A stretch of DNA of 64,000 nt from Gemmatimonadota bacterium (GTDB taxonomy: Bacteria; Gemmatimonadota; Gemmatimonadetes; Longimicrobiales; RSA9): NCBI GenBank assembly GCA_040905425.1, contig JBBDRO010000106.1:10710-74709 (forward strand), in the 5' to 3' direction. Positions 9,322 to 40,004 of this stretch are shown in pieces. Made by a program: the position numbers and the translations under genes. The notes under the pieces were generated by a model. The model was not told where the DNA came from, did not search any database, and saw only the letters and a list, made by a program, of their open reading frames with translations. Position 1 is the stretch's first letter, and the number at the start of each line of letters is the position of its first letter.

Positions 9322-9438
9322 GTGGGTGCCTGTTGGGTTCGCGAAACGGGGCGGGGCAGGGGGAGGCTGCACCGTGGACCACTGTATACAGAACCCCGAA
9401 GGATGTGTTTCGTTGGCGGCGTGGGCAAGCCCGGGTAG

Positions 9439-14190: not shown

Positions 14191-15411
14191 GTGGAGCAGA
14201 ACGAGCGCGGGACGTTTCAGGGGGACGTCGCTTACGAAACGATGCTGCCGGAGCCGCCACTGCGCGTGCCGGAAGGGGCGCTGGCGCGGCGGTTCGCGTG
14301 GATCGGGCTCGGCATGGCGGCCGCGGTCTTCGTGGCCGTGCTCATTGCCACGCAGAACTGGCTGGCGCTGGCCCAGGCCGGCGAGCCGGAACGGTGGCTG
14401 TGGATCTTTGCCATGGAGCTGCCGGTGTGGCTGGCGTGGGCGGCCGTGGCACCGCTCATCCTGCTCTTCGTGCGGCACTTTCCGGTGGCGGGCCGGCGAC
14501 GACTGCGCAATCTGGCGCTCCACCTGCCGTTCGCGCTTTTCATCGAGTTGCTTGCGTTCATGCTGCACAGCGTGGTGCGCTATCAGCTGGATCCCGGCGG
14601 GCCCGCGTCGGGGGGGTACTGGGACGTGGTCGCGGTGGGATATCCGCGCACCTTTGGCCTCTTCCTACTGGTCTACGGCGGCATCGTGGCGCTCTATCAG
14701 GCGCTGGCCTACTACCGCGCCTACCAGGCCCGTTCCATGGCCGAGAGCCGGCTGGAGGTGGAGCTGGCGCGCGCCGAGCTGCGCACGCTGCGCATGCAAC
14801 TCCATCCCCATTTCCTGTTCAACACGCTGCACGTGATCTCCGCCCTGATGACGCGTGACGTGGCCACGGCGCGCCGCATGATGCGGCGGCTGAGTGAACT
14901 GCTCCGCCTGACGCTGGAGACGGACTCGGCGCACGAGGTCACCCTGGAGGAGGAGCTGGCCATCCTGGATCACTACGTGGAGATCCAGAAGATGCGTTTC
15001 CAGGATCGGCTCACGGTGAGCGTGGAGGTCAGCCAGGAAGCGCGCGGCCAGGCGGTGCCCGCCTTGCTTCTGCAGCCCCTGGTGGAGAACGCTATCCTGC
15101 ATGGTGTGGCGCGCGTGGCCCGGCCCGGCCAGGTTGTCGTGCGCGGGGTGGTGGAGGGCCGGCAACTCCGCATTGCCGTGGAGGATAACGGACCGGGTCT
15201 GGCGCCGCGGTCCGACGATGATCGCGGGCGCGGGGGACTGGGCATCCGCAACACCATGGCGCGGCTGGCGCGGATCTATGGTCCGGGGGCCGCGCGCTTC
15301 TCGCTGCGGGAGCGGCCCGAGGGCGGTGCCGTGGCCGAACTGCGCCTGCCGCTGCGCTCGCGGGTGCCTGCCACAGATGCTCCAGCGGGGAGGGAGGGGA
15401 TCGATGAATGA
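14191..15411 (+). CDS. LytS/YehU-type sensor histidine kinase (membrane)
   Basis: About 4 N-terminal TM helices, then 'LRMQLHPHFLFNTLHVISALM' (the His_kinase PF06580 signature) and an HATPase_c region ('VEDNGPGL', 'GGLGIRN'). It starts 18 nt after P3. Confidence 0.85.
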   Translation: MEQNERGTFQGDVAYETMLPEPPLRVPEGALARRFAWIGLGMAAAVFVAVLIATQNWLALAQAGEPERWLWIFAMELPVWLAWAAVAPLILLFVRHFPVAGRRRLRNLALHLPFALFIELLAFMLHSVVRYQLDPGGPASGGYWDVVAVGYPRTFGLFLLVYGGIVALYQALAYYRAYQARSMAESRLEVELARAELRTLRMQLHPHFLFNTLHVISALMTRDVATARRMMRRLSELLRLTLETDSAHEVTLEEELAILDHYVEIQKMRFQDRLTVSVEVSQEARGQAVPALLLQPLVENAILHGVARVARPGQVVVRGVVEGRQLRIAVEDNGPGLAPRSDDDRGRGGLGIRNTMARLARIYGPGAARFSLRERPEGGAVAELRLPLRSRVPATDAPAGREGIDE

Positions 15412-24401: not shown

Positions 24402-25595
24402 TTACCGGTGGAGCGCGTACAGCGCCACCGCCTGCACCCCCAGCGAGTCCTCCTCCACCGCCAGCAGGCGATCCGTACCGATGTCCAGGATGCGCAGTGA
24501 GGCGCCCGGCGGCAGGTCTACATGGCCCAATCCGCGGCCCTCGGGATCCAGCAGGAAGAAGCGTTCGGGATTGTCCCGCACACGGGGCGGGTCCCCCACG
24601 TAGCGCGGCGTGTACTCCGCGATCCAGATGTTGCCCTCGGGGTCCGCCAGCAGGCCCTCGAAGTGCGGCAGCGGTTCCTGGATGGCCGCCTTCATGGTGG
24701 TCATGCGGCCGTTGATATCGGCGGCCGGTAGGCCGATCTCGGTGAATCGATCCCGCAGCGCACGCTCATACGCCGTCCAGAGCGAATCCGGCACCGGGAC
24801 GCTCGGCGCCTCCCAGCGCGCGATGCGCGTGGGTTCGCCGTCGGCGCCCAGCCAGCGCACCTCCGGCGCATCCCCGCGCCCCACCACCACCGTGCCCCCG
24901 GTGATCGTGGCGTGCCCCTGGCTCAGGAACGGGTTGTTGCCCCCGTAGTCCAGGCTCTGGTCCCAGTCCGCCACCGCCAGGGTGTCCACCACGCCCGTGG
25001 CCAGGCTCATGCGGACGAAGGGAATCGACAGCCATGGCGTCTCGTACCTGCGCCCGTACACCACGCCAGGAGGCATGCCGAACACGGCACGCCCCTCTTC
25101 ATCCGCTCCCAGCAGGCTCAGGTTGGCGGCGGGTCCCAGTTCCACGTCGCCCACCTGTTCACCGCCATGGAAGAGCGTAAGCCGGCGGTTCATGGCATCC
25201 TGCACCGCGATGGTGTCGGCCCCCAGGCGCTTCATGGCCAGAATGCGGCGGAATTCGCCCGGCCCCTGCCCGGGCCGGCCGAGCACGGCCTCGACTGCAC
25301 CATCGGAGGCCAGGACGCTCACCTGCAGCGTCTGCCCGCCGTCCGCGATGGCGGCGCCCCCGCCCTCCAGCAGAGCGCCGGCCACGATGTTCTCGAAGAC
25401 CGGCCCGGTTTCATCCCAGCCGACGCGCCACATGGGCTCTTCGGACACGCGCATGGGGGCGGCATCCGCCAGCGGCCAGGGGCTCTCCACCATGGAGATT
25501 CCGGCGCTGTCCCGAATGGTCACATGTGCGGACCGGGGTTGCCCGTCACCACAGGCGAGCAGGGCTGCGAGCAGAATGCCGATAGCTGGTTTCAC
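24402..25595 (-). CDS. NHL-like 6-bladed beta-propeller lipoprotein, paralog P4
   Basis: Lipobox 'LLAC', 'IRDSAGISMVE', 'GRPGQGPGEFRR' and the C-terminal 'GVQAVALYAL'. The GTG start overlaps the P5 stop (GTGA). Confidence 0.7.
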   Translation of the reverse strand: MKPAIGILLAALLACGDGQPRSAHVTIRDSAGISMVESPWPLADAAPMRVSEEPMWRVGWDETGPVFENIVAGALLEGGGAAIADGGQTLQVSVLASDGAVEAVLGRPGQGPGEFRRILAMKRLGADTIAVQDAMNRRLTLFHGGEQVGDVELGPAANLSLLGADEEGRAVFGMPPGVVYGRRYETPWLSIPFVRMSLATGVVDTLAVADWDQSLDYGGNNPFLSQGHATITGGTVVVGRGDAPEVRWLGADGEPTRIARWEAPSVPVPDSLWTAYERALRDRFTEIGLPAADINGRMTTMKAAIQEPLPHFEGLLADPEGNIWIAEYTPRYVGDPPRVRDNPERFFLLDPEGRGLGHVDLPPGASLRILDIGTDRLLAVEEDSLGVQAVALYALHR

Positions 25596-26407
25596 CGGTC
25601 ACCGGGCTGGATCCGGAAGCGCACCACGTACGCCTCATCGAACTCCCCACGCACCGTGGCCCAGACATCCCGGTCCACCACGTCGTAGAAGTAGGCGTTC
25701 GCCGGCAGGACCACGGTCCCCAGGAAGGTGCCGGTCGGCTCGAACACGTTCCAGGTCGGCTGTTCGCGCCACTCGTGGGGGGGCGCTCCGCTCGCGGGTG
25801 GCGGGCCGGTGCGCGGCCGGTGCACCGCCTCCACGTAGCGGCGTACCCAGATCCGTCCGCCGGCATCGGTGCGCAGGGTGCTGAAGGCCGGCTTCGTGTC
25901 CGGCACCGAATAGCTGCGGTCGCCGCTCCCGGCGCGCGCGAAGAACTCCGCCCAGGCCTCCCACTCCGCGTGCTCCGGTCCGCGCACGGGCAGGGGTGTG
26001 AAGGGCCGCTCGATGCGCAGCGCCGGCTCCTCGGTCCGCCGCAGCTCGAAGGCGTACGTGCGGTTGTGGCCGACCACCAGGTATCCGAGCGGGCTCAACG
26101 TGGTGACCAACTGCCTCGTGAAGGGCCGATCGTAGCCCGAGGCGGTGCTCAGCACGAAGGAGGGCGGAGTGCTCGGCTCCTCCGGGATCGGCAACCAATC
26201 GAGTACCTCACCCCCGGCGGAGAGGCGGATCCATACCTCCCCGTGGCGTTCGCGCGGATCGTCGGCGCCGTCCATTGTGCCGATGCGCACCTCCTCCACC
26301 AGCCGCGGCGCCGGCCCCCAGACGGGAGCGTTCGTGGCGCGCACGACCTGCGGCTGCTGCGCGGCGGCCGGAAGGGCGGTGGCACCCAGGACCAGAACCA
26401 GGGCCAT
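25592..26407 (-). CDS. Truncated/divergent member of the propeller family, paralog P5
   Basis: 271 aa from ATG 26407 (MALVLVLGATALPAAAQQ). It aligns only to the C-terminal part of the family ('...GRIWVRRY...', 'EFDEAYVVRFRI'). It lacks the lipobox and the GPGEF blade. Confidence 0.5.
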   Translation of the reverse strand: MALVLVLGATALPAAAQQPQVVRATNAPVWGPAPRLVEEVRIGTMDGADDPRERHGEVWIRLSAGGEVLDWLPIPEEPSTPPSFVLSTASGYDRPFTRQLVTTLSPLGYLVVGHNRTYAFELRRTEEPALRIERPFTPLPVRGPEHAEWEAWAEFFARAGSGDRSYSVPDTKPAFSTLRTDAGGRIWVRRYVEAVHRPRTGPPPASGAPPHEWREQPTWNVFEPTGTFLGTVVLPANAYFYDVVDRDVWATVRGEFDEAYVVRFRIQPGDR

Positions 26408-26499
26408 TGCCGCGCACCGCCGGGTGGGCGCGGCGCTGGAGGGCGCAGCGCTGAAGAACGTGGTGCTCGCCCTGGCATCCTGGACGCCGACCGCGCGGC

Positions 26500-29400
26500 T
26501 CACGGGATGCCGCCGGTGCGCGTCGGCGGCGTGACGGGCGGCCCCGGATCCGGCCGCAGCCCCGCCACGTAGACCTGGGCATAGACCGCCGGCGCGCGCG
26601 TGGTGATCCACTCGTTCAGCTCGGCCACCAGCCCGGGCGCCTCCTCCCAGGCCTCCTCGATGGCGTGGAGCTGGTCGGCGGTCGGCGGATTGTGCACGCC
26701 CTCGATGCCGAACATGAGCCGGGTGGCACCCGTGAGGGTGCCCATCCGCTGGCGCAGCTCGTTGAAGTCCGCGCGCGCGACCGTGACCTCCTGGCGCAGC
26801 GCGGCGGGGCCGTCCTCCACGTGCTCCGCCGCGGCCTGCAGCTGCTCGGCCAGGCGACTGACGGCCTGCCCGGCCAGGTAGGCGCTCTCCTGCAGCGCGT
26901 AGACGTCCATGGCCGCGCGGTGGCGCGCCATGAGGTCGGCCTCCGTGATGCGGGCGCGCGGATCCAGGCGCACCTCGAAGCGCTGCTCCTCAGCGCTGAT
27001 GCCGGGCCCCTCCAGCCGCGCCACGTAGGTGCCGGGCAGCACCTTCGGACCCGCCGCGCCGCCGCCGAAGCCGCCGCCGTCCTGGCCTTCCTCCGGCTCC
27101 ACGGCGGGCGCCATGCGCAGGTCCCAGAAGACCTCGTGCATGCCGGGCGTGCCCGGCACGTCCAGCGTCCGCAGCGTGGCGCCGGATGCGTCGGCGATCA
27201 CCAGCCGCAGCTCCGGCTCCTGGTCGTCGCTGTCCGCCGCCACCACGGCGTCCCCGCCCACGTGGTAGCGGATGCGTGCCCCGGTGGGCGGGTCGGGCAG
27301 TCCGAACGTGCCCGGCTCCCAGCCCTGCGGGGACCAGATGGTCCAGTCGGTGGCCCGCGGCACGGGGAAGAGATGCCCCGCCTTGGCCAGCGTGGCCTGG
27401 CTCATCTGCTCCAGCGGTGAGACGTCGTGCAGGATCCAGATGCCGCGCCCGTGCGTGCCCAGGATGAGGTCGTTCTCGCGCGGGTGCAGCACGATGTCGT
27501 CCACGGGCACGGTGGGCAGGCCCGCCTCCAGCTCCTGCCAGTTGCGGCCGCGGTCGATGGAGAACCAGAGCCCCGCTTCGTTGCCCGCGAAGAGCAGGTT
27601 CGGCGCACGCGGGTGCTCCAGGAAACCGTTCACCGATTCCATGGGCAGGCCGTTGGTAATGCGCGTCCAGCGCGCGCCGAAGTCCTCGGTGACGAAGACG
27701 TAGGGGTTGTAGTCATCCTGGTAGTGGCCGTCCAGCGTGACGTATGCCCGGCTCGGCGCGGCGGCGGAGGCGCGCACCCGCGTAACGTAAATGAGCGCCG
27801 GCACGCCCGGCAGGTTGTCCGTGACGTTCGTCCAGGTGGTCCCGCCGTCGCGCGTCACCTGCACGTTGCCGTCATCCGTGCCCACCCAGATGATGTCCGC
27901 ATCCGATGGTGATTCGGACAGCGTGGTGATGCTGCCGTAGTACGAGATCCCGTCGTTGCGCGAGAGCGTGGCGCCGGTCACACGCTCACCCATGATGGTC
28001 ATCGTGTCCCTGTCCACGCGGGCCGTGAGATCCGGGCTGATGGCATACCAGCTCTGGCCGCGGTCCTGGGAGCGGAGGAGGTAGTTAGAGCCCGTGAAGA
28101 TGGTGGCCGGATCGTGGTCGGAGATGCGCAGCGGCGTATTCCAGTTCCACTGCAGGCGGGTGTCCTCCTCGATGCCGTTGCCGGGGCGGGCGTCCGGCCG
28201 GATGCTCAGGCGCTCACCCGTGACCAGGTCCACGCGGCTGATGTTGCCGTTCTGCGACTCGGCGTAGGCCGTGCGCCAGTCCGTGGGATCCACCGTGGCG
28301 TAGAAGCCGTCGCCACCGTGGATGTTGAACCAGTGCTGGTTGCGGATGCCGTTCCGGTTCCAGACCGCCGTGGGGCCGCACCACGTGCCGTTGTCCTGCA
28401 GGCCGGTGCACACGTAGTAGGGGTCGCGCATGTCGTAGCCCACCTCGTAGGACTGCGCCAGCACGATGTTGTCATACATACGCCAGCTCTCCGCCCGGTC
28501 GAAGGAGACCGAGACGCCGCCGTCGCTGCCCATGATGAGGTGGTTGGAATTGTTCGGGTCGACCCAGAGGGCGTGGTGATCGGAGTGCACCTCGCGGGCG
28601 TCGCTGCGGAATTCGTAGCCGCCGTCATCGGAGATCATGAGTTGCACGCCGCCCAGGTAGACGCGTTCGGCGTCGTTCGGGTCGATGACCAGTTTGACGA
28701 AGTACATGGGCCGGGGGTTGGTGGTGCTCATGTGCTCCCACGTCTCGCCTCGGTCCCTGGAGCGGTAGATGCCCGACGCCTCACGCCCGCCCCCCTCCAC
28801 GCGGATCACCACGTAGTTCGGATCCTGGCGCCAGATGTCAATGCCGATGCGCCCCAGGTCTCCTTCCGGAAGGCCCTCGGTCAGCCGGGTCCAGCTGCGG
28901 CCGCAGTCCACCGTGCGGTACAGCCCGCTGCCCGCACCCGCGGCGCTGAAGCCGAAGGCCGTGCGCTGCCGCTGGTAGGCCGCCGCGAAGACGGTGCACG
29001 GATCGGCATGGTGCATGGCCAGGTCCGTCACACCCGTGTGCTCGTCGATGAAGAGCACCTTCTCCCAGTTCGCGCCGCCGTCGGTGGTCTTGTAGACGCC
29101 GCGCTCCTCGTTCGGCCCCCACAGATGCCCGACGGCCGCCACGTAGGCCACGTCGGGATCGGTCGGATGCACCTCGATCTCGCCGATGTGGCGAGTGGCC
29201 TCGAGACCCAGGTCCTGCCAGGTGCGGCCGCCGTCCACGCTGCGGAAGACGCCCGCCCCGTAGGGGGAGCTCTGCCGGTTCTGCGGCTCGCCCGTGCCTA
29301 CCCACAGCACGTTTGGATTGGAGGGTGCCAGCGCCAGCGCGCCGATCGACGCGGTGCGCTGGTCATCGAAGATCGGCTGGAAGGAAGCCCCGTGGTTCGT

Positions 29401-29637
29401 GGTCTTCCACAGGCCGCCCGTGGCCGCCCCCACGTAGAAGGTGGCCGGGTTCGCCTCGTCCACGGCCAGGTCGGCAATGCGCCCGCCCATCGTGGCGGGG
29501 CCAACCTGGCGGAATTCCAGCCCCGCGAGGGAGCGCTCCGGAATGGCCTCCTGGGCCGCCACGGCGGCCGGAAGTGTGAGGAGCACGGCAGTGGCCAGAT
29601 CGAGCCAGCGGCGGTCAGCTACGAGTGCGCGGCGCAT
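26500..29637 (-). CDS. BNR/Asp-box repeat protein (sortilin/VPS10-like double propeller, often annotated as glycosyl hydrolase)
   Basis: At least seven Asp-box motifs (SxDxGxTW): 'SVDGGRTWQ', 'TTDGGANWE', 'TVDCGRSWT', 'SRDRGETWE', 'SQDRGQSWY', 'TRDGGTTWT' and 'SIDRGRNWQ'. It has a signal peptide ending AVAAQE. 1045 aa. Confidence 0.8.
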   Translation of the reverse strand: MRRALVADRRWLDLATAVLLTLPAAVAAQEAIPERSLAGLEFRQVGPATMGGRIADLAVDEANPATFYVGAATGGLWKTTNHGASFQPIFDDQRTASIGALALAPSNPNVLWVGTGEPQNRQSSPYGAGVFRSVDGGRTWQDLGLEATRHIGEIEVHPTDPDVAYVAAVGHLWGPNEERGVYKTTDGGANWEKVLFIDEHTGVTDLAMHHADPCTVFAAAYQRQRTAFGFSAAGAGSGLYRTVDCGRSWTRLTEGLPEGDLGRIGIDIWRQDPNYVVIRVEGGGREASGIYRSRDRGETWEHMSTTNPRPMYFVKLVIDPNDAERVYLGGVQLMISDDGGYEFRSDAREVHSDHHALWVDPNNSNHLIMGSDGGVSVSFDRAESWRMYDNIVLAQSYEVGYDMRDPYYVCTGLQDNGTWCGPTAVWNRNGIRNQHWFNIHGGDGFYATVDPTDWRTAYAESQNGNISRVDLVTGERLSIRPDARPGNGIEEDTRLQWNWNTPLRISDHDPATIFTGSNYLLRSQDRGQSWYAISPDLTARVDRDTMTIMGERVTGATLSRNDGISYYGSITTLSESPSDADIIWVGTDDGNVQVTRDGGTTWTNVTDNLPGVPALIYVTRVRASAAAPSRAYVTLDGHYQDDYNPYVFVTEDFGARWTRITNGLPMESVNGFLEHPRAPNLLFAGNEAGLWFSIDRGRNWQELEAGLPTVPVDDIVLHPRENDLILGTHGRGIWILHDVSPLEQMSQATLAKAGHLFPVPRATDWTIWSPQGWEPGTFGLPDPPTGARIRYHVGGDAVVAADSDDQEPELRLVIADASGATLRTLDVPGTPGMHEVFWDLRMAPAVEPEEGQDGGGFGGGAAGPKVLPGTYVARLEGPGISAEEQRFEVRLDPRARITEADLMARHRAAMDVYALQESAYLAGQAVSRLAEQLQAAAEHVEDGPAALRQEVTVARADFNELRQRMGTLTGATRLMFGIEGVHNPPTADQLHAIEEAWEEAPGLVAELNEWITTRAPAVYAQVYVAGLRPDPGPPVTPPTRTGGIP

Positions 29638-29766
29638 GGGAGCCCTCCTGCGGCGTGGGATCGAGTTGTGAGCGGCAGTGTCGTGGAAGGACTAATTTCG
29701 GACGCGAGGGTCCGTGGCGCAACGAACCAGGGCACGGCTGAGAATGATCAAGGAGCACTGAACGCA

Positions 29767-30432
29767 GTGAAGCAACGTGAGCGCCTGGCCGAAGCCACGG
29801 CCCCCGACGGCACCGTGCTGACCCTCTGGTGGCACGACGGCGCCTACGCCATACATGCCGGCACCGCCGAACTCATGTCCACCCGTCGCTTCCACTCGGA
29901 GGAACAGCTGGCGGAGGTGGCCTGCGGTCCGTTGCAGGCTGTCAGCCACGCACGGGTGCTGATCGGCGGCCTGGGCCTGGGCTTCACGCTCCGCGCCGCG
30001 CTCCGCGTGCTGGCCACCGACGCCCGGGTGATGGTGGTGGAGATCGTCCCTGAGATCATCGCGTGGAATCGGCACCCGGATTACGCGCTCGGGCGGGACG
30101 CGCTCGAGGATCCCCGCGTGGAAACGGTGCAGGATGACGTGACCAACGTGCTGCGCACCAATCCCGGCGCCTACGACGCCATCCTGCTCGACGTGGACAA
30201 CGGCGCCGAGGCGCTTACGACGGCGGGCAATGCGGTGCTCTATTCAGCCCGCGGCGTACGCATGACGGTGCGGGCGCTGCGCCCTGCCGGCCGGGTGGCC
30301 TACTGGTCCACGGACCGGAACCCGCGCTTCGCCGCCGTGCTGCGCGCCGCCGGGCTGAGCGTGGAGACGCTCGAGGCACGGGCCCACACCACGTCCGGAG
30401 GACCGCACACGCTGCTCGTGGGCCAGGCCTGA
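29767..30432 (+). CDS. Spermidine-synthase-like class I methyltransferase-fold protein
   Basis: 'VLIGGLGLGFTLRAAL...VVEI.PEII.W' and 'YDAILLDVDNG' resemble SpeE-like proteins. Only the last 221 codons of track ORF 28114..30432 look real. The upstream part is antisense to the BNR gene. I chose GTG 29767, which has AAGGAG upstream. Confidence 0.5.
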   Translation: MKQRERLAEATAPDGTVLTLWWHDGAYAIHAGTAELMSTRRFHSEEQLAEVACGPLQAVSHARVLIGGLGLGFTLRAALRVLATDARVMVVEIVPEIIAWNRHPDYALGRDALEDPRVETVQDDVTNVLRTNPGAYDAILLDVDNGAEALTTAGNAVLYSARGVRMTVRALRPAGRVAYWSTDRNPRFAAVLRAAGLSVETLEARAHTTSGGPHTLLVGQA

Positions 30433-30440
30433 GCCGGGTA

Positions 30441-31835
30441 TCATCCCCCGCCGGCAGCCTCCCCCGATGGCAGCACGACCACCCCGATCCCCTCATCGGC
30501 GCGCCACTCGATCGCAGTCCCGAACGGGCGCGAGCGCTCCACCAGGTCACCGATGATCTTGGCACCCAGCTCCCGGTCGGCCAGCAGCGGGCGCCCGCGC
30601 ACCGTGCGCGGCTCGCCGTAGCCCAGCGTGATGGGGTGCAGCTCGAGGGACACGAGCCGCTCCCCCTCCCAGGTGGGCAGCGCCACCACCGCCTCCCAGA
30701 TCTCCCGGTCCGTCGGGAAGCCACGCGTGTCGTCACGGTAGCGGGCGGCGTTGAAATCCCCCACGAATGCGTCCTCAGGCAGATCGTAGGGCGCGTAGTT
30801 GTCGGCCGGCAGGCGGAGCAGCGTCTCGTTCTGGAAGATGAAGTCGCCCAGCGAGTAGAGGATGGGCTTGCCCCGGTAGATCTCGATGCCGCGCAGCACG
30901 TGCGGGCCGTGGCCCACAAAGACGTCCGCGCCGGCGTCGATCATGGCGCGCGCGAAGGTGACGAGGAACTCGGCGGGGGTGGAGCGGCCACCGTCGCCTC
31001 CCTCATGGGCATGAATGGTGACGATGACGTAGTCCGCCAGCATGGCGGCGTTGCGCACCACGGCGCCGATGGCCGCCACGTCCTCCGGGTCGGGCTCCGT
31101 GTCACGGCCGTCCTGGTCCGCGGCCACCAGCGTGGTGCCGAAGACGCTCAGCTGATGGCCCGAGTCGGGGACGCGCTGGCCAATGTCCCGCAGCGCCGTG
31201 CGCAGCGTCTCCAGCTTCTCCCGCTCGATCGTGCGGGTGGTCCGGTAGCGCAGGGGGTTCAGCCCCGGACGGCCGCGCACCGCGCCCCGCGCCGGCCCGG
31301 CCGCGGAGTGGTCCGGGAAGGTGGAGGCCACGCTGATGAGGGCCACGCGCCCGTCCTGCGTGTCCAGGAAATGGGCCTCACGCGCCTCGGTCAGGTTCTC
31401 ACCCGCGCCGGCGGCCACCAGCCCCGCCTCGGCCGCGTACTTCCGAGTGAGACGCATGCCGTCGGGTCCGTAATCGCCGGTGTGGTTGTTGGCCAGTGAG
31501 ACCAGATCGATGCCCGCCCACGTCAGCTCGTGGGCCAGCGCCGGCTCGGCGCGCATGTAGGTGCCGCCGCTCTGGTGCGCCGGGTAGGGCTCGTAGTCGT
31601 GGAAGAGCATCTCCAGGTTGGTGAACGCCGCGTCGGCGCCCCGGAGCAACTCGATCATGTCCAGGAACGCCGGCTCCTTGAAGGGGGAGAGGCGGCGCGT
31701 GATGATGGCGTCGCCGGTGAGGGCCAGGGTGAAGCGACCGTCGCCTGACAGAGCGCCTGACGGGTCCTGCGCCATGGCCGGTAGCGGCAGCAGCACGGTC
31801 AGCGTCACCAGGACGAGAGGGAGGCGCGTGCGCAT
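30441..31835 (-). CDS. CapA-family (poly-gamma-glutamate capsule synthesis-like) metallophosphatase
   Basis: 'DLVSLANNHTGDYG', 'VTIHAHEG' and 'FVGHGPHVLRGIE' match PGA_cap/CapA motifs. The signal peptide ends 'PAMAQD'. Confidence 0.8.
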   Translation of the reverse strand: MRTRLPLVLVTLTVLLPLPAMAQDPSGALSGDGRFTLALTGDAIITRRLSPFKEPAFLDMIELLRGADAAFTNLEMLFHDYEPYPAHQSGGTYMRAEPALAHELTWAGIDLVSLANNHTGDYGPDGMRLTRKYAAEAGLVAAGAGENLTEAREAHFLDTQDGRVALISVASTFPDHSAAGPARGAVRGRPGLNPLRYRTTRTIEREKLETLRTALRDIGQRVPDSGHQLSVFGTTLVAADQDGRDTEPDPEDVAAIGAVVRNAAMLADYVIVTIHAHEGGDGGRSTPAEFLVTFARAMIDAGADVFVGHGPHVLRGIEIYRGKPILYSLGDFIFQNETLLRLPADNYAPYDLPEDAFVGDFNAARYRDDTRGFPTDREIWEAVVALPTWEGERLVSLELHPITLGYGEPRTVRGRPLLADRELGAKIIGDLVERSRPFGTAIEWRADEGIGVVVLPSGEAAGGG

Positions 31836-32025
31836 GATGCGGCTCCTGGCTGGAGGGGAAAGGGCCGCCGTGGGGCGACCCCCTCATGCTACGGCGCGGT
31901 GCGTTCCACGTCGAGGGGTGCGCCCGGGCTGGCCGGTTCGCTGCCCGTTGCCTATGCTTCGGCGTTCATCCCCGCGGCGGCCTCCCTCGCCCGAGCGTAC
32001 CGCACGCCCATGGTAGGAGGCACGC

Positions 32026-33981
32026 ATGCACACCCTCCCGCGACCCGCCGCGTCCCGCACGGCGCTGACGCTCACCTTCATGGCCACCGCCTGGCTGGCC
32101 GGCCTCGCCTGTCCCCGCGCGGTGGCCGCCCAGGAGAGCAGCTACGACGCCCTGGTGGAGATTGCCATCATCGAGGAGCTGGTGATGATGCCCATGCGCG
32201 ACGGCGTGCGCCTGGCCACCAACATCTACCGGCCCAAGAGCTCGGCGTCGGTGCCGGCACCCACGATCTTCGTGCGCACGCCCTACAACATGAACATGTG
32301 GCGCGACGGCGAGCATTCCACCGGCCGCTACGGCGCCATCCTGGACGCGGTGCGGCGCGGCTACGTCTACGTGAACCAGAACGAGCGCGGCCGCTTCTAC
32401 TCCGACGGGGAGTGGGACATCCTGGGACCGCCCCTCACGGACGGCTACGACGCCCTCAGCTGGATCGCGGACCAGCCCTGGTCGAACGGCAGGGTGGGGA
32501 CCTACGGCTGCTCGTCCACCGCGGAGTGGCAGATGGGCCTGGCCGCCCTGGACCATCCGGCCCACGCCGCCATGGTCCCCCAGGGCTTCGGCGCCGGTGT
32601 GGGCCGGGTCGGGGACTGGTACGAGCAGGGCAACTGGTACCGCGGCGGCGCCGAGCAGATGCTCTTCTTCACCTGGCTCTACGGCGTTCAGAACACGCAG
32701 CGTCCCCGCGTCGACCGGGACACGCCGCGTGAGGACCTGGTGCGGCTCTCCCGCTACTTCGACCTGGCCCCCGAGATGCCCGGCGTGGACTGGCCGGAGG
32801 CGCTCTGGCACCTGCCCGTCGAGGATCTCATGCGCAGCGTGGACGGGCCGCAGGGGATCTTCGCCGATCCCGCGCCCGTGGCCACCGGCGGGCGCATGAT
32901 CCAGCGCACGCCGAACGATCCGGCGTGGTACCGGGGTGGCCTCTACCACGACGACATGCCCTTCGGCGTTCCCGCCCTGTGGTTCATGTCCTGGTACGAC
33001 GTCTCGGTGGGTCCCAACCTGGCGCTCTTCAACCACGTGCGGGAGAACGGCATCGACGCCGAGACCCGTGCGAACCAGTTCGCGGTGGTGGCGCCCGTGG
33101 CCCACTGCGCCTACACCCGCGCCAGCCAGAACACGATGGTGGGGGAGCGGAGCGTGGGCGATGCCCGGTGGGCCTACGACGAGCTGATCTACGCCTGGTG
33201 GGACCGCTGGTTGAAGGGTGTCGAAAACCAGGTCACCGACACGCTGCCGGCGGTGCGCTACTACACCATGGGCTCCAACGAATGGCAGACCGCCACGGCT
33301 TGGCCGCCGCCAGCCGCGGAGATGGTCACCTATTATCTGGATTCCACCAGCGGCGCCAACACGCTCCGAGGCGACGGCGCGCTACGCACGAGCATGCCCG
33401 GGGCGGCCGGCTTCGACGCGTTCACCTACGATCCCGCCGACCCCGTCCTCTCGCACGGCGGCAACGTGTGCTGCATCGGCGGCGCCATCCAGGCGGGCGC
33501 CTTCGACCAGCAGGCGGTGGAGGCGGAGCGCGAGGACATCCTGGTCTACACCACGGAGCCCTTCACGGAGGGCACGGAGGTGAGCGGGCCCGTGGAGGTG
33601 CTGCTCTACGTGTCCTCGGACGCCAGGGACACGGACTTCACCGTCAAGCTGCTGGACGTGGATCCCGACGGGCGCGCCTACAACTTGGACGAGAGCATCC
33701 AGCGGGCGCGCTGGCGCGAGGGCTACGAAGGGGATCCCGTTTTCATGGAGCCGGGGCAGGTCTACCAGGTGAAGGTGGGGCCGCTGACCACCTCGAACCG
33801 CTTCCTGCCCGGCCACCGGCTGCGCATCGAGGTGTCCAGCTCCAACTTCCCGCGCTTCACGCGCAACCTGAACACGGGCGGCAACAACTACGACGAGACC
33901 GAGATGCGGGTGGCGCGCAACCGGGTGCACCACTCGCGCGAGCACCCCTCGCAGGTGCGGGTGCCGGTGGTGCGGCGCTGA
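32026..33981 (+). CDS. CocE/NonD family hydrolase (S15 X-Pro dipeptidyl-peptidase-like)
   Basis: 'IFVRTPYN', '[13 protein letters not shown]' (nucleophile elbow region) and the C-terminal '[22 protein letters not shown]' typical of the PepX_C domain. The signal ends 'AVAAQE'. Confidence 0.85.
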
Positions 33982-34143: not shown

Positions 34144-34235
34144 CAGAAATGATTGTTTGCTGGCGGTGTAAGATGCTGCGTGGTAGGTGTTTGCGACATT
34201 CCGCTCAGGCGAGAATCCTCAAACTTCACCCACAC

Positions 34236-34253
34236 AATATTCTATAGAATATT
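34236..34253. promoter_or_regulatory. Perfect 18-bp AT-rich palindrome AATATTCTATAGAATATT (candidate dimeric-protein binding site)
   Basis: The sequence equals its own reverse complement over all 18 nt. It lies in a 381-bp non-coding gap between two convergent genes. Confidence 0.45.
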
Positions 34254-34362
34254 TTGGCTCAACCATGCGCCGCCGGGGCCGAATCTGTAGAGCGCCTCGG
34301 AGCCCCATACTTGCCTCCCGTGGTCAGACCCGCCCAATCGTTGGCGGGGCCGGCGCCGTACA

Positions 34363-35526
34363 TCACCGTTTAAAGAGCGGATAGGCGCGCACGTACTCCA
34401 CGTCCATCTCGTCGCGCCACACCCCCAGCACGGCGGCCGTATCGATTGCGTGGACGGTGAGCCCCGCCGGCGTCTCCGCCACGCCCGCGAACGCGCCGTC
34501 CGGGTCGAAGACCCACCAGCGCACAGACCCCTCTTCCGGCTGGGCGTAGGGGCGGAGCCACAGGTGTCCCGCGGTGTCCACGCGGAGCGCCGAGAGCACC
34601 GGCTTGGTGTCGGGAAACGGCACCGCGTCCAGGCGAGGCAGGATCTCCTGCTCCAGCAGGGACGGCGGTACGCCGCTGATGTAACGCGCCCGGATGCTGT
34701 CCACGTCGGTGGCGTCCACCGGCTGGCCGACGGCGCCGCAACGGATGATGCGCTGCAGGCGGCCGCGCAAATTGTAGGACCGGACTTCGCAGGCGCTCGT
34801 GTCGGCAACATGGATGTTGGAATCGGTGAGCGTGTACAGGGCGGTCCGGCCGAATGGGCGGGTCAGCCCGTCGAACGTCTCCAGTCGGGGGATGCGGATC
34901 AGCGTGTCCCGCGTGCCGCCGGTGCCGAAGCGGACCAGCACGGAGGTGTCGCGGCGCAGCACCCGCGCCCCCGGCGCAACGTCGGCCGGTTTCCGTAACG
35001 AATAGACCAGCTCGGTGCCGAAGCAGCCCGCCACCGGCGGCAGCGACCCGCGATCCATCGGCGGCGCTTCAGCCGACTCGCGAAAAGCGCCATCTGCATT
35101 CAGCCGCGAGACCCGCGGGATCTGCAGGTCCTCGGCGATGAGCCCCGAACCGCACGTACGTACGGAGCGTAGCCGCCGGAATTCGCCCGGCCCGTCACCC
35201 TCGCCGCCCGCCGTGTGCAGGTGCCGCCCCGCGTCGTCGAAGAAGCGTAGTTCCGCGCCCTGAGCAATCAGCAGCCGCCCATCTGGCAGCCGGAGTACGC
35301 TGCGCACGCCGTCGAGCTGGTAGGCCGCCTCTCCGTCGATGGCGCCTATGGTAAGCGACGGCGTCGCATCCGCGCGCCACCGCACCTCCCCGTTCGCGGC
35401 GGGCGCCGGGTTCTGCACGATGCGGATGCCAGCGCTGTCGCGGACGGTGACGCCGCCTTGACCGACGTCGGTGCCGCATGCTGCTGCCGTGAAGAGGAGG
35501 AGCAACCCCGTTACCCGTACGTGCAT
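34363..35526 (-). CDS. NHL-like 6-bladed beta-propeller lipoprotein, paralog P6
   Basis: Lipobox 'TAAAC', 'VRDSAGIRIVQN', 'GGEGDGPGEFRR' and the C-terminal 'VLGVWRDEMDVEYVRAYPL'. It starts 3 nt after the P7 stop. Confidence 0.7.
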   Translation of the reverse strand: MHVRVTGLLLLFTAAACGTDVGQGGVTVRDSAGIRIVQNPAPAANGEVRWRADATPSLTIGAIDGEAAYQLDGVRSVLRLPDGRLLIAQGAELRFFDDAGRHLHTAGGEGDGPGEFRRLRSVRTCGSGLIAEDLQIPRVSRLNADGAFRESAEAPPMDRGSLPPVAGCFGTELVYSLRKPADVAPGARVLRRDTSVLVRFGTGGTRDTLIRIPRLETFDGLTRPFGRTALYTLTDSNIHVADTSACEVRSYNLRGRLQRIIRCGAVGQPVDATDVDSIRARYISGVPPSLLEQEILPRLDAVPFPDTKPVLSALRVDTAGHLWLRPYAQPEEGSVRWWVFDPDGAFAGVAETPAGLTVHAIDTAAVLGVWRDEMDVEYVRAYPLFKR

Positions 35527-35529
35527 TCG

Positions 35530-36822
35530 CTACTCCTTCTCCAGGGCGTAGACGCGGACGTACTCCACGTCGAATTCGTCGCGATACATGCCCAGGACGT
35601 GATCCTGCCCGATTTCGAAGACGGTGAAGTCAGCAGGCGTGGTGACCTCCCCTAGCCATCTGCCGTCCGGGTCGACGACCGACCAGGTGGACGGCCCGTC
35701 GTACGTGGGTCTGTGGTGGGTGGTGGTGGCACCATGGCTCACCTCGAAATGGCGCAGCCACACGTTGCCCGCACGGTCGCTGACGAGCCTGGAAAACCGC
35801 GGCAGCGTATCGGCGAACGTCCTGCCGCGCGCAATGTCCTCGCGCAGGGGTGGCACCGAGTGCCTTACGTAGTCGTCGACCATGCCCTCGGTTGCCGCTT
35901 GCCCTGGCCAGGCGCGGCGCGTCAACCGTTCCAGCCGACCCTCGGGATGGTACCAGCGGACCTCGCCCTCCCTCGAAAGGCCCACGATGAGGCTCCGACC
36001 GTCGGTCCCGGCGTACGTGGTGGCGCCGAACACCGCCGGCAGGATCAGGTTCATCGGGTGCGGATGGTAGGCGGGGCCCTCGAGGCTGACCAATTCATTC
36101 AGAACGGCACCATCGCGCCCGAAACGGGAGAAGGTCAACGTCAGCGTGTCCGCTTGCTCGAACCGGCGCTCGGCGGTGACCGCCAGTCGGGAGGCTTCCC
36201 AGCCGATGAACGTGCCGTCCTCCAGCCAGCCCACGACGCGGATGCCGGTGGGCGGGTTCAGCTGAAAGGTGATGGGATCCACGGATGGCAGCGGCATGGA
36301 GCCCGTTGCGATCACGTCCCGATAGGTGCCGTCCGACCCGTACATGTGCAGGCGTTCCAGGAGGTCGTAAACGGCAATGCCATCATCGGGCAGGCGGTGA
36401 AGGCCCATCACCTGGCGGAACTCGCCCGGGCCTTCCCCCCGCGAGCCCACCGACATCAGGTGCTGGCCGTCGGGATCGAAGAAGCGCAATTCGGAGGCGC
36501 CCATGTCCGCCACCACGATGCGCCCGTCGGAAAGCGTGACCGCACCCATGATCCGGTCGAAGAGGTACGCCGGCTCCCCGTCCATGGCGCCGATCTGGAC
36601 CGTGGGCGGCTCCACCAGCCGCCAGCTTTTGTCGGCGGTCCAGGCGGGTGCCTCGTTCTGAACTATCCGTACGCCGGCGCTATCGGTGATGACCACGCCC
36701 GGGTCGGCCGGCCGAACCAGATCGCACGCCCCGATCCAGAGAAATGCCCCGAGAAGGGCCAGCCAGGCACCCGAACCGCATGCTGTGCGTCGGATGTCAA
36801 TGCCCACCCGTGGTGTCCTCAT
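35530..36822 (-). CDS. NHL-like 6-bladed beta-propeller lipoprotein, paralog P7
   Basis: ATG 36822 (MRTPRVGID...WIGAC lipobox) lies 13 nt after the P8 stop. It has 'ITDSAGVRIVQN', 'GSRGEGPGEFRQ' and the C-terminal 'VLGMYRDEFDVEYVRVYAL'. Confidence 0.7.
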   Translation of the reverse strand: MRTPRVGIDIRRTACGSGAWLALLGAFLWIGACDLVRPADPGVVITDSAGVRIVQNEAPAWTADKSWRLVEPPTVQIGAMDGEPAYLFDRIMGAVTLSDGRIVVADMGASELRFFDPDGQHLMSVGSRGEGPGEFRQVMGLHRLPDDGIAVYDLLERLHMYGSDGTYRDVIATGSMPLPSVDPITFQLNPPTGIRVVGWLEDGTFIGWEASRLAVTAERRFEQADTLTLTFSRFGRDGAVLNELVSLEGPAYHPHPMNLILPAVFGATTYAGTDGRSLIVGLSREGEVRWYHPEGRLERLTRRAWPGQAATEGMVDDYVRHSVPPLREDIARGRTFADTLPRFSRLVSDRAGNVWLRHFEVSHGATTTHHRPTYDGPSTWSVVDPDGRWLGEVTTPADFTVFEIGQDHVLGMYRDEFDVEYVRVYALEKE

Positions 36823-36835
36823 CACCGCGTGGTGA

Positions 36836-37930
36836 TCACGATGGCGAGCGATGGTAGCGATGGACGTGCACGTGCTCCACGTCCAGTTCGTCACGCCAGA
36901 TGCCGGCGATCAGCTCGCCCCTGATGCTGAGCGGTTGAAAGCCCGGCGGCATGGCCACCTCGGCCAACAGGCCGCCAGCGCCATCGAAAACCGACCATGC
37001 CTGCGCAGCCGCGGGGTCCGTGGGATAGGCTCCCACCCAGATGTTCCCGGCGTCATCGATGACGAGCCCCCCCACCGCCGGAAAATGGGTGGGAGCGGGC
37101 ATCCGTGCCTGCGCGCCCGTGCGGCTTCCGGGGTCCGGATCGGGGATAGCCACCGGCTCGTGAGGGCGGCGGAGCGTGCGCTCCGCGCCGGTGTCCAGGT
37201 CGTAGACACGCAGGGTGAACGTCTCCCCGTCGGCCACGTAGACGGTCCGATCCCGCACCGCGATGTAGGTCTTCTTGAGGTGCGGTGGGTTGAGCAGGAC
37301 CCCCTCCATGACCGCCCGCTCGTCCCCCACCACGGTGCCGATCGTGTCGAGTGGTGTACCGGCCGGATTGTAGACGCCGATCTGGTGGGTGGGGCGGACG
37401 AGCCCGCTGCCGTCACGGGGGGTGGCGGCGAGCGCGGAGGTTCGCCTGGCCAGGAGGGTGCCGTCATCGAGGATGGCCAGGAGCTCCGGCACCCCGAGGC
37501 CGCGCTCCCCCGGCTCGAGGGCCAGCGTGCGTGCGAAGCCGTCGTGGATGGAGAAGATCGTGGCGCGGCGGAGTGCGCGGTCGTAGGCCACGATGGAATC
37601 CGGTGCGCGTTCCTGGATCCATGCGATCGCGCGAAACTCCCCCGGACCCCCGCCGGAGGCGCCGAAGATGGTGTCCACCTGGCCTGAGCGGCTGAGCACC
37701 ACGATACGCTGCGCCCCGTCCGCCACCACCAGGTGACCGCTGGAAGTCAGCAGCGCGCCCACCACACGATCCAGCGGCAGTTCGCCGCCGCCGACGCGCG
37801 TGAGCGGCGCCGGATCCACTGCCCACTCCTGCGCCGCGAGCGCCGGCGTCGCGGCGACGGTGTGCAGCAGTATGGCGAGGGCCGCGCCCGCCGTGGCGGG
37901 AATGCTCCTGCCGCGGCGGGAGATGCCCAC
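36836..37930 (-). CDS. NHL-like 6-bladed beta-propeller protein, paralog P8 (secreted, no lipobox)
   Basis: The GTG start shares one nucleotide with the TAG stop of the BlaR1-like gene (TAGTG). It has the signal 'ALAILLHTVAATPALAAQE', 'GASGGGPGEFRA' and the C-terminal 'IAGIWRDELDVEHVHVHRY'. Confidence 0.7.
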   Translation of the reverse strand: MGISRRGRSIPATAGAALAILLHTVAATPALAAQEWAVDPAPLTRVGGGELPLDRVVGALLTSSGHLVVADGAQRIVVLSRSGQVDTIFGASGGGPGEFRAIAWIQERAPDSIVAYDRALRRATIFSIHDGFARTLALEPGERGLGVPELLAILDDGTLLARRTSALAATPRDGSGLVRPTHQIGVYNPAGTPLDTIGTVVGDERAVMEGVLLNPPHLKKTYIAVRDRTVYVADGETFTLRVYDLDTGAERTLRRPHEPVAIPDPDPGSRTGAQARMPAPTHFPAVGGLVIDDAGNIWVGAYPTDPAAAQAWSVFDGAGGLLAEVAMPPGFQPLSIRGELIAGIWRDELDVEHVHVHRYHRSPS

Positions 37931-39522
37931 TACCGCTTCGTGGTGACGACGATCACGCCGGCCGCCGCACGGGTGCCGTACAGGGCCCGCGCCGCGGCGC
38001 CCTTCACGATCTCCACGTCGGCGATGTCCAGCGCCTCGAGATTGGTGTCCCCGGACACGATGACGCCGTCCACGATGATCATCGGCTGTCGCTCGGTGGT
38101 GACCGGCTCACCGACGGGCGGCCGCGGACGCAGCACCGGACGATCCTCGAATCGCTCGGGCGAGGCGCCCGTGGTGATGTTGATGACGCCCGCGCTCGCG
38201 CGCGAGCCGTAGAGGGAGCGGGCGGCGTCTCCCTTGATGATCTCGACGCTGGTGATGTCCAGCGCCTCCAGGTCCACGCGGAGCGGCCGGGCCATGATGA
38301 CGCCGTCCACGATGATCATGGGTTCGGGCTCCTGGCTGGTCAGATCCTGCGCCTGGCGCAGGACCAGCTGGGCGTGCCCCAGGGTCATCGTCGTTCCCTT
38401 CCGGACGAGTGTCACGTCCGGTTGGTCGCCGAGCTCCACGGACTCCACGAGCACACGGTCCTGGCGCGTGTCGCCGGTCAGCGCGTCCGTGACGGGGCCC
38501 TCAGGCCCACGGTCTTCCCGTACACCGTCCGTCACGGCATCCCCGGTCTCCGCGATGCCGGCGTCCGTCACGGCGCTCGCCGGCTCGGGCGTGGGACCCA
38601 GATTGACGGGCGAGCGCGCCTCGCAGGCCGCCAGCAGCAGGGCGGCGGCGGCGCAGGCGGCCAGGGCGGAGCGGAGCGGGGCGGCGGTCCGGGGTGTGGT
38701 CATGGCTCGAATCCTCGTCTCGAGTGTGCTCCTCGGATGGAGCAGGGCGGGTACGGCCAGCGGCAGGTCGTCCTCGCCGGCGGTGGTGCGGATCAGCAGT
38801 TCGGCATAGGCACGGCGGTCGGCACCGCCGCGGAGGACGCGCGCGTCACAGTCCAGCTCCACAGCGGCGCGCAGGCGCCGGAGCGCCCACCAGGCGGCGG
38901 GGCTGAAGGGGAGCGCGGCCACGTAGGCCGCGCCCGCCGCCAGCAGCAGTGGGTCGCGGGCGCGGACGTGCTCCGCCTCGTGCGCCAGGGCCAGGCGGAG
39001 GGACGTCCCCCCGGTGGCAGCCAGGCGGGACGGTATGATCACGGCCGGCCGGAGCAGGCCCAGCACGGCGGGGCCGAAGCCGTCACTCAGGCGCACGCGC
39101 ATGCCCTCCATCTCCGCGGCCGGCCAGGCCCGCCCGCGCCGCACGAGCCGCAGGTAGACGCTGGCGAAGGCCACGGCCAGGAGCAGCCCCGCCGCCAGCC
39201 AGAGCGCGCCGAGGGCGGGCTCGAGCCAGAGGGACGGATGGTACGCGGGGAGGGTCGGCGGGGACGTCGCTTGCATGCCAGTGAGGGAGAGGGGCGTGCC
39301 CTCCAGCGGCATCCCCGTGGCGGTGCCGGCGCGCGGCAGGAGCGTGCCGAGGCTCGGCAGCCGGGCGGCCACGAGCGGTACGAGCACGGTGCCGAGCATG
39401 GCGGCCGCCCATGGCCAGCGGCCGGGCAGCCCGCGGGAGCGCAGGACGGCTTCCGCGGCCCACGCGGCCAGTGCCAGCAGCGTGGAGACGAGCGCCAGGT
39501 AGAGCATCCAGTCGGCGATCAT
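37930..39522 (-). CDS. BlaR1/MecR1-like M56 family membrane metalloprotease with two C-terminal TonB-receptor-Plug-like repeats
   Basis: N-terminal TM helices and 'LALAHEAEHVRARD' (HExxH in the M56 context). The C-terminus has two 51-aa repeats, 'PMIIVDGVI...LEALDI.SVEI.KG.AAR.LYG.RA.AGVI..TT'. I see no SxxK penicillin-sensor domain. Confidence 0.75.
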   Translation of the reverse strand: MIADWMLYLALVSTLLALAAWAAEAVLRSRGLPGRWPWAAAMLGTVLVPLVAARLPSLGTLLPRAGTATGMPLEGTPLSLTGMQATSPPTLPAYHPSLWLEPALGALWLAAGLLLAVAFASVYLRLVRRGRAWPAAEMEGMRVRLSDGFGPAVLGLLRPAVIIPSRLAATGGTSLRLALAHEAEHVRARDPLLLAAGAAYVAALPFSPAAWWALRRLRAAVELDCDARVLRGGADRRAYAELLIRTTAGEDDLPLAVPALLHPRSTLETRIRAMTTPRTAAPLRSALAACAAAALLLAACEARSPVNLGPTPEPASAVTDAGIAETGDAVTDGVREDRGPEGPVTDALTGDTRQDRVLVESVELGDQPDVTLVRKGTTMTLGHAQLVLRQAQDLTSQEPEPMIIVDGVIMARPLRVDLEALDITSVEIIKGDAARSLYGSRASAGVINITTGASPERFEDRPVLRPRPPVGEPVTTERQPMIIVDGVIVSGDTNLEALDIADVEIVKGAAARALYGTRAAAGVIVVTTKR

Positions 39523-39890
39523 GCCTCCCCCTCGCCGAGCTCGCGCTCGATCAGGTCACGGATGCGGCGCAGCTCCTCATCGGGCAGGCGGCGCTCCTGG
39601 ACGAGCTGCGCCACCAGCAGCGAGGCCGAGCCCTGGAAGATCTTGTCCACGATCCGGCCCACCGCCGTCTCGCCCGCGGCCTCCGACTCCACGAGCGGGT
39701 GGTAGCGGTAGGCGCGGCCCTCGCGCTCGTGGCCCACGGCGCCCTTCTGCTCGAGCGTCTGCAGGGCGGAGAGCACGGAGGTGTAGGCCAGGTCCTCCCC
39801 CAGTGCGTCGCGCACCTCGTTCACGGTGGAGGGGCCGCTGCGCCAGAGGATGGACATGACGTCGAGTTCGCGATCGGTGAAGCGGGCCAT
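39519..39890 (-). CDS. BlaI/MecI/CopY family transcriptional repressor
   Basis: 'RELDVMSILWRSGPSTVNEVRDAL..DLAYTSVLSALQTLEQKGAV.HEREGRAYRYHPLV' is the winged-helix Penicillinase_R pattern. 123 aa. It overlaps the M56 gene (ATGA). GGAGGG lies upstream. Confidence 0.85.
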   Translation of the reverse strand: MARFTDRELDVMSILWRSGPSTVNEVRDALGEDLAYTSVLSALQTLEQKGAVGHEREGRAYRYHPLVESEAAGETAVGRIVDKIFQGSASLLVAQLVQERRLPDEELRRIRDLIERELGEGEA

Positions 39891-39940
39891 GTGCGGTTTC
39901 CCTCCGGGGCGTGGGCGTCAATGTGCTACGGATGATTCAG

Positions 39941-39970
39941 TAGATAACACCGGCGTGGTGGGGTTGTCAA
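39941..39970 (-). promoter_or_regulatory. Candidate sigma70-like promoter of the blaI-blaR1-propeller operon
   Basis: On the minus strand: TTGACA (39970..39965), an 18-nt spacer, then TATCTA (39946..39941). A weak CTAC-N10-GTAG inverted repeat (39926..39943) overlaps the -10. Pattern match only. Confidence 0.3.
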
Positions 39971-40004
39971 CTGGAAGGGCAGTAGCGAGCGGCCCGGCGC
40001 GCGG

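Follow-up and report, generated by a model that had tools for sequence, protein, structure and literature searches.

The window analysed here, a 64-kb stretch of DNA (64,000 nucleotides, G+C content about 70%) from an uncultured Gemmatimonadota bacterium, carries at positions 34363-39890 five minus-strand open reading frames (ORFs), all in the same direction, which encode a BlaI-like repressor, an M56 membrane protease (BlaR) and three beta-propeller proteins, P8, P7 and P6. We propose that these genes form an operon in which an atypical BlaIR switch co-induces three exported NHL-type propellers in response to a periplasmic cue, a reading towards which the evidence on balance tips slightly. 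The genes blaI (39519-39890) and blaR (37930-39522) are joined by an ATGA overlap, and the TAG stop codon of the latter (37932-37930) has one G in common with the GTG start codon of P8 (37930-37928), the sole in-frame start that endows P8 with a signal peptide. P8 (36836-37930) ends 13 nucleotides (nt) ahead of the P7 ATG at 36822, and P7 (35530-36822) ends 3 nt ahead of the P6 ATG at 35526, P6 itself extending to 34363. A preliminary description of this DNA had reported five near-contiguous co-directional genes, and all ORFs and the four junctions (ATGA, TAGTG, 13 nt and 3 nt) were recovered as it gave them. With 0-13 nt between genes, co-transcription of the three tightly packed propeller genes behind the pair is the default expectation, and the propellers are probably co-transcribed with blaI-blaR. 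The gaps are too short to contain a promoter or a terminator. Independent signals of this kind between blaR and the propeller genes had been named beforehand as evidence against a common operon; a scan of the junctions detected no terminator-like or sigma-70-like site, the sigma-70 part of the scan being of little value in this phylum, and the four terminator-like matches obtained all lie within coding sequence.

The blaI product, a winged-helix protein of 123 amino acids (aa), matches Pfam PF03965 (Penicillinase_R) over residues 5-115 with 104.6 bits (cutoff 22.6, E = 5e-30). Its closest solved structures are BlaI of Mycobacterium tuberculosis (Rv1846c, 2g9w, 1e-10) and then MecI (2e-8). The 530-aa M56 protein scored 60.4 bits against Peptidase_M56 (cutoff 31, E = 2e-16), and its profile matches the protease core of Staphylococcus aureus BlaR1 (8exp) over residues 175-294. 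It possesses five hydrophobic segments with a hydropathy profile resembling that of BlaR1 and carries the catalytic motifs HEAEH (residues 181-185) and EXXXD (E222/D226), in which H181, E182, H185, E222 and D226 are invariant across 28 M56 homologues. A disordered linker (residues 301-367) leads to the C-terminal third of the protein with two periplasmic Plug-like repeats of about 50-80 aa each (approximately 369-451 and 481-528), which represent the conserved core of the SusC/RagA Plug, present twice (TIGR04057, 70.4 bits, cutoff 46.2). The 22-stranded SusC/RagA barrel is absent from the M56 protein, as the chain stops at residue 530, and TIGR04056 gave 95 bits with a cutoff of 368. In the full-length structural model the mean predicted local distance difference test (pLDDT) score is 73, with confidence solely over the protease core and the two repeats, both of which are predicted to fold as small alpha/beta modules after the disordered linker. 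All four families anticipated in the preliminary description (Peptidase_M56, Penicillinase_R, Plug and NHL) were matched in hidden Markov model (HMM) or profile searches. A 100%-identical entry from a Gemmatimonadota metagenome-assembled genome (MAG) is named 'M56 family metallopeptidase' by NCBI, and JGI labels M56+Plug proteins 'TonB-dependent SusC/RagA subfamily outer membrane receptor'. The protein's final transmembrane helix terminates in LLLAAC (residues 295-300; 38623-38640), with Ala299 and Cys300 invariant in the 28 homologues. This lipobox-like motif in a polytopic protein suggests that the sensor tail may be derived from, or processed like, a Plug-repeat lipoprotein.

Taken by themselves, the Penicillinase_R and M56 domains are also what a canonical beta-lactam-sensing BlaI/BlaR1 pair with its resistance gene elsewhere would possess. 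These domains are all that is shared with such systems, and we regard this explanation as extremely improbable. Pfam and NCBIfam searches of the M56 protein returned no transpeptidase match (PF00905) and no class-D-like domain; its C-terminus is made up of the Plug-like repeats, which bears out the earlier claim that a penicillin-binding domain is missing. NCBIfam NF000326 (blaR1_generic) scored 30.8 bits against a cutoff of 400, confined to the protease core, the repressor reached 54 bits against BlaI_of_BCL with a cutoff of 180, and domain searches of the flanking genes found neither a beta-lactamase nor a penicillin-binding protein (PBP) gene. A canonical beta-lactam system was therefore rejected on the basis of the domain searches. 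With BlaI/BlaR1 and MecI/MecR1 of Staphylococcus and Bacillus the module shares the repressor fold, the HEXXH/EXXXD core of the M56 protease and, as predicted here, two TAC...GTA-type operators over the promoter of an autoregulated operon. Unlike these systems, it has no penicillin-binding sensor and no divergent blaZ or mecA, carries Gln-Leu in place of the scissile Asn-Phe and is followed by propeller genes.

The statement that BlaI/BlaR1 pairs normally regulate a beta-lactamase or PBP2a, from which the preliminary description had started, is outdated, since in a survey of about 15,000 M56 proteins only about 6% carried a transpeptidase domain and about 94% did not (Kurtz et al., 2026, J Bacteriol, PMC13492132). 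According to the same survey, M56+Plug is one of nine M56 architectures with at least 100 entries, 96% of M56 proteins are encoded no more than five genes from a BlaI, and an atypical BlaIR system is defined by an M56 protein without transpeptidase domain and a BlaI gene at a distance of up to five genes, as a rule upstream (PMC13492132). The pair in the window fits this definition with blaI upstream, the ATGA overlap and an M56 protein lacking the transpeptidase, and in architecture it is identical to the InterPro/Pfam M56+Plug class, within which it falls into a BlaR sub-clade with some propeller-followed members. CenIR of Clostridioides difficile is an atypical system that controls exported and cell-envelope proteins (PMC13492132), and further atypical pairs are found in M. 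tuberculosis (Rv1846c/Rv1845c), Mycobacterium abscessus and Pseudomonas aeruginosa (PvmSR, bioRxiv 10.64898/2026.08.03.742534). In CenIR, Rv1846c/Rv1845c and PvmSR, just as here, blaI lies immediately ahead of a transpeptidase-less M56 gene, a beta-lactamase is lacking, and proteins that are exported or belong to the envelope are the likely outputs. The differences lie in the sensor tail, which consists of two Plug-like repeats here, whereas no domain is recognisable in CenR and a sensor domain is lacking in Rv1845c and PvmS, in the candidate output, which in our case is a string of NHL-propeller (lipo)proteins in the same putative operon, and in the host, an uncultured gemmatimonadote. The absence of an SxxK domain and of a beta-lactamase and a derepression circuit for envelope proteins are hence the norm for atypical BlaIR systems. 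What did stand is that the searched literature describes neither a signal nor a regulon for the M56+Plug class, nor a recurrent association with NHL-propeller lipoproteins.

In search of operators, the 160 nt upstream of blaI were compared in 77 related loci. The sequence TAC-N10-GTA occurs in 61 of them, other spacings being present in 0-3 loci except for a spacing of 13 in 15, and it sits within an 18-bp family palindrome, CTAC[G/T]G-N6-C[C/A]GTAG (CTACNG-N6-CNGTAG). In the window, a putative operon promoter on the minus strand (39942-39970) was read from the sequence as TTGACA (39970-39965), a 17-nt spacer and TTATCT (39947-39942); the -10 box is too weak for the sigma-70 consensus scan, which gave no match. 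The putative operator O1 (CTACTGCCCTTCCAGTTG, 39968-39985, minus strand) has one mismatch to the family palindrome and extends into the opening bases of the -35 box. The second putative operator, O2 (CTACTGAATCATCCGTAG, 39926-39943, minus strand), is a perfect 18-bp palindrome-type site and the only perfect match in the 64 kb; it begins inside the -10 box and spans the likely transcription start. Judged from these sites, two palindromic operators appear to lie over blaI's own promoter, and two operators bracketing a single promoter is the same classical geometry as in canonical bla and mec systems. The promoter element is conserved with L081, the closest relative of the locus, and in outline with the more distant orthologous locus L084, which has an O1-like geometry (CTACGG-N6-CCGTTGACA). 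The sister loci L001, L025 and L075 carry AACTA-N6-TAGTTGACA, a half-degenerate site overlapping the -35 box. A motif search of the 64 kb, aimed at sites that would point to independently regulated propellers, found no operator copy beyond O1 and O2 and none ahead of any propeller gene. It follows that the propellers, if under this repressor at all, are controllable only via read-through from the blaI promoter, and that P8, P7 and P6 most likely depend on this promoter.

The candidate output consists of three old paralogues which are 25-35% identical to each other (P6 and P7 34.5%). P8 (364 aa; family HMM 3e-83) is predicted to be secreted, having an RR-containing signal peptide with an AxA site (ALA-AQE) and no lipobox cysteine. 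P7 (430 aa) and P6 (387 aa; family HMM 2e-111) have the lipobox sequences ...WIGAC and ...TAAAC, respectively, by which they are predicted lipoproteins, and a cysteine at the position of P7 C33 is conserved to at least 90% in 90 family members. When compared with solved NHL domains, the profile of the propeller family gave E = 1e-38. P7 exceeded the cutoff of Pfam DUF5128 (24.3 bits, cutoff 22.9), while P8 and P6 remained under Pfam cutoffs. The AlphaFold model of P7 (pLDDT 91.6) predicts a six-bladed propeller, and Foldseek placed NHL domains nearest to this model (E = 7e-13, template modelling scores 0.62-0.69), together with two exported Bacteroides proteins. The fold and the repeat signature are shared with NHL six-bladed propellers (DUF5128; Bacteroides 4raa BF0058 and 3s9j BVU_1028), and these two Bacteroides proteins are exported, as is predicted for P8, P7 and P6. 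The Gemmatimonadota family differs from these propellers in a conserved C-terminal motif of its own, W/YRDExDVEYV, in a lipobox and in its massive expansion. Among the NCBI names of 100%-identical Gemmatimonadota MAG entries, P7 is a '6-bladed beta-propeller' and P8 a 'hypothetical protein', and we know of no bacterial NHL-type propeller like P7 with a known function. The window contains eight genes of this family at five places, four of which are without blaIR. The five further propellers (9439-10632, 11195-12238, 12991-14172, 24402-25595 and 25592-26611) adjoin a DinB_2 gene (10629-11168, 4-nt overlap), a LytS-type histidine kinase gene (14191-15411) and a gene for a Sortilin/BNR protein (26500-29637).

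In the model that we favour, a BlaI-type dimeric winged-helix repressor would bind the two palindromic operators that bracket the sole promoter upstream of blaI. Its partner would be a four- to five-helix M56 membrane zinc protease with the Plug-like periplasmic tail instead of a penicillin-binding domain. By analogy with BlaR1/MecR1 and CenIR, a periplasmic cue sensed by this tail would activate the protease, which would then cleave the repressor and so derepress the operon. The secreted P8 and the lipoproteins P7 and P6 would be transcribed from the blaI promoter and induced together with blaI-blaR. What the analysis establishes are the domain identities, the catalytic motifs, the conservation of the operator, the gene spacing and the statistics of synteny; that the genes are co-transcribed, that derepression is proteolytic and what kind of signal acts are matters that we infer.

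The facts on the gene junctions need no chance test, and the decisive question is whether the arrangement recurs elsewhere, which was found to be the case in a minority of relatives. Relatives of the module number 407 in species-representative genomes, almost all from Gemmatimonadota, and hundreds of M56-Plug homologues are present in Longimicrobium, Gemmatimonas and related genera. Gene neighbourhoods were compared for 80 loci of different species (30-44% identity), and blaI is located directly upstream of blaR in essentially all of them. As evaluated with the family HMM, a propeller was counted as linked when its start was co-directional and within 1 kb of the last blaR gene. Such a propeller follows in five of 66 informative distant loci (L025, L029, L050, L062 and L073), among which L073 shows a series of blaI, three blaR paralogues and three propellers in tandem; in L061 a propeller is also found downstream, on a short contig outside this count. 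The density of propeller clusters in these loci, taken as background, predicts 0.22 linked loci, which corresponds to an enrichment of more than 20-fold (Poisson P about 4e-6). In a neighbour-joining tree of BlaR, the linked modules all fall into one of two major clades (about seven of 28 informative members as opposed to none of about 50 in the other clade), where the linkage recurs in at least five separate branches, and the group of the window is sister to the propeller-linked L025. The expectation that blaI-blaR1-propeller synteny is conserved in related genomes was therefore borne out in part: it recurs beyond chance, yet it is patchy, about 92% of the distant homologous modules being without a downstream propeller. 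Hence we conclude that the propeller linkage is real but facultative.

The genes that lie behind blaR in the distant relatives are of many kinds. Of the 66 classifiable loci, 39 have a convergent ORF first downstream and 27 one that runs in the same direction; the latter are a mixed group, with DinB in four loci, IlvD (dihydroxy-acid dehydratase) in three, PF00144 in two and others as singletons. A conserved cargo of M56-Plug modules was not found among the genes downstream of the 80 loci, which are heterogeneous or convergent. The DinB gene stands straight after the M56-Plug gene in L008, L018, L019 and L041. The PF00144 'Beta-lactamase'-family serine hydrolase gene is directly downstream of M56-Plug in two distant Gemmatimonadaceae loci (L054, 1719-3131; L065, 11469-12878) and provides the only hint of a beta-lactamase-like cargo for these modules.

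Among the nearest relatives, L081 shows about 89% nt identity to the window, 85% identity of the M56 protein and 87-96% identity of the flanking proteins. Its gene order is TMEM260, an extra propeller, the blaI promoter, blaI, blaR, a 157-aa Plug-repeat lipoprotein, a P7 orthologue (79% identical) and an S15 peptidase, without P8 and P6. The block of promoter, blaI and blaR is collinear between both (89.7% nt identity), the flanking propeller genes differ, and the P7 ATG at 36822 is the exact point where DNA homology resumes. A comparison of the window segments 34433-35548, 36820-37926 and 39988-39997 with L081 shows that propeller genes have been gained or lost there as gene-precise cassettes at about 89% DNA identity. 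The breakpoint of the P6 indel lies in the conserved 3' end of the propeller gene (WRDExDVEYV motif) that is common to the paralogues, which is consistent with unequal recombination. In L133, P8 (84% identity), the Plug-lipoprotein (73%) and P7 (83%) are present. The sets behind blaR are accordingly P8-P7-P6 in the window, Plug-lipoprotein-P7 in L081, P8-Plug-lipoprotein-P7 in L133 and none in L084, where blaR is followed by a Sortilin/BNR gene that in the window is 8 kb off. The stable autonomous unit is thus the promoter-operator-blaI-blaR block, and we view the propellers as a facultative, fast-exchanged output whose source is a very large family of paralogous lipoproteins and not as module-defining cargo.

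Several observations weigh against the proposed operon of switch and propellers. Even between loci with about 89% nt identity the propeller set does not remain stable, and L084 (blaI 93% and blaR 55% identical) has kept the upstream synteny and has no propeller. The loci that enter the enrichment test are phylogenetically non-independent, L050 and L073 for example being related. A metagenome scan with the P7 subfamily alignment yielded 40 loci holding a P7 relative, 39 of which are without blaI or blaR, the exception being the L081 contig. Gln95-Leu96 of the repressor align with the scissile Asn-Phe of S. aureus MecI/BlaI, so that cleavage is only putative; distant BlaI-family members often deviate at this site, and by the Gln-Leu pair cleavage is neither proven nor excluded. 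An internal promoter may furthermore be present in the 3' end of the M56 gene. The propellers, according to the preliminary description the only apparent cargo, could not be upheld as 'the' cargo of the module, given that the set varies in the closest relatives down to its complete absence from an orthologue with 55% identity, that so few distant modules have a propeller behind them (59% of the classified loci are convergent at this place) and that, beyond the species group, the closest homologues of P7 and P8 stand in unrelated contexts. Those of P7 (48-52% identical) adjoin aminotransferase genes, toxin-antitoxin genes, genes for CarboxypepD_reg proteins or other propellers. That of P8 is found in L134 (42% identical, 144 nt from the contig end); no Plug-like C-terminus was seen in the upstream translation of this short sequence, and the gene is probably not blaR-linked.

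The same distribution bears on the possibility of mere juxtaposition, in which blaI-blaR would be self-contained with targets elsewhere and the propellers would be passengers with weak promoters of their own or constitutive read-through. Eight propeller genes per 64-kb window with four other contexts devoid of blaIR, the gain and loss of single propeller genes between near-identical genomes, the frequent convergence and the diversity (DinB, IlvD, PF00144) of the genes downstream of blaR and the unrelated surroundings of the nearest P7 and P8 homologues are all in favour of passengers. Against them speak the stop/start overlap of P8 and the 13- and 3-nt gaps, which are typical of operons, the enrichment of downstream propellers in related modules and the occurrence of the arrangement in several separate branches of one BlaR clade. 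In view of these points we consider juxtaposition unlikely, without regarding it as negligible.

A third explanation, to which we likewise attach a rather low probability, is that the propellers are partners of the sensor rather than, or besides, its output: the Plug-like repeats would dock ligand-capturing propeller lipoproteins, and free Plug lipoproteins would act as competitors or adaptors. Stand-alone Plug-repeat lipoproteins or ORFs with only a transmembrane segment and Plug are encoded in L081 (11634-12107), L133 (860-1330), L050 (11068-11823) and L073 (9207-9995). In the stand-alone proteins a signal peptide with lipobox is followed by a linker rich in Pro and Ala and by a single Plug-like repeat, which is 45% identical to the repeat in the M56 tail. 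In L081 and L133 their genes separate blaR from the propeller genes, which argues for a partnership, as do the transmembrane-Plug ORFs inside the blaR arrays of L050 and L073 with propellers next to them and the small CarboxypepD_reg/Plug proteins that adjoin P7 homologues in L085 and L087, where blaR is lacking. A further point on this side is the divergence of the sensor. Among orthologous loci (L081 and L084 versus the window) the M56 sensor-protease is just 55-85% identical and the repressor 93-97%, and by these identities the sensor evolves much faster than the repressor, its putative substrate. On the other hand, the arguments for a partnership are purely contextual, propellers are missing from the surroundings of most M56-Plug modules and Plug proteins from those of most propellers, and the window itself is without any stand-alone Plug lipoprotein.

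The genes flanking the module encode a TMEM260-like protein, propellers, an S15 peptidase and a PGA_cap protein, and a scan of the whole window against Rfam gave no match. A nearly perfect palindrome of 24 bp (CACAATATTCTA followed by TAGAATATTTTG), AT-rich within this genome of 70% G+C, is located at 34233-34256, where the P6 and S15 peptidase genes converge. The region is conserved with L081, and the palindrome might serve as a terminator for both directions or as a site to which a protein binds. Exported peptidases and hydrolases are abundant at 26500-33981 and 7201-9372 (S15 X-Pro dipeptidyl-peptidase, S9 DPP-IV, PGA_cap and Sortilin/BNR), a neighbourhood that may give a clue to the physiological context in which the propeller lipoproteins act.

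Atypical BlaIR systems far outnumber those that sense beta-lactams, and almost none has a known signal or regulon. The linkage reported here is patchy and the M56+Plug architecture has already been catalogued, so that current understanding is not overturned. Together with the family-wide operator motif, the locus supplies the M56+Plug class with a testable candidate regulon, exported NHL propellers, in a phylum that has been little studied. A more far-reaching possibility, which we judge to be quite improbable at present, is that, within a single clade of the BlaIR modules of Gemmatimonadota, Plug-like repeats and NHL-propeller lipoproteins constitute a dedicated envelope sensing-and-response system, with the propellers and the free Plug lipoproteins of relatives as ligand-capturing co-receptors or induced effectors. 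If true, this Plug/propeller system would be the first case of an input/output pair being assigned to the M56+Plug class.

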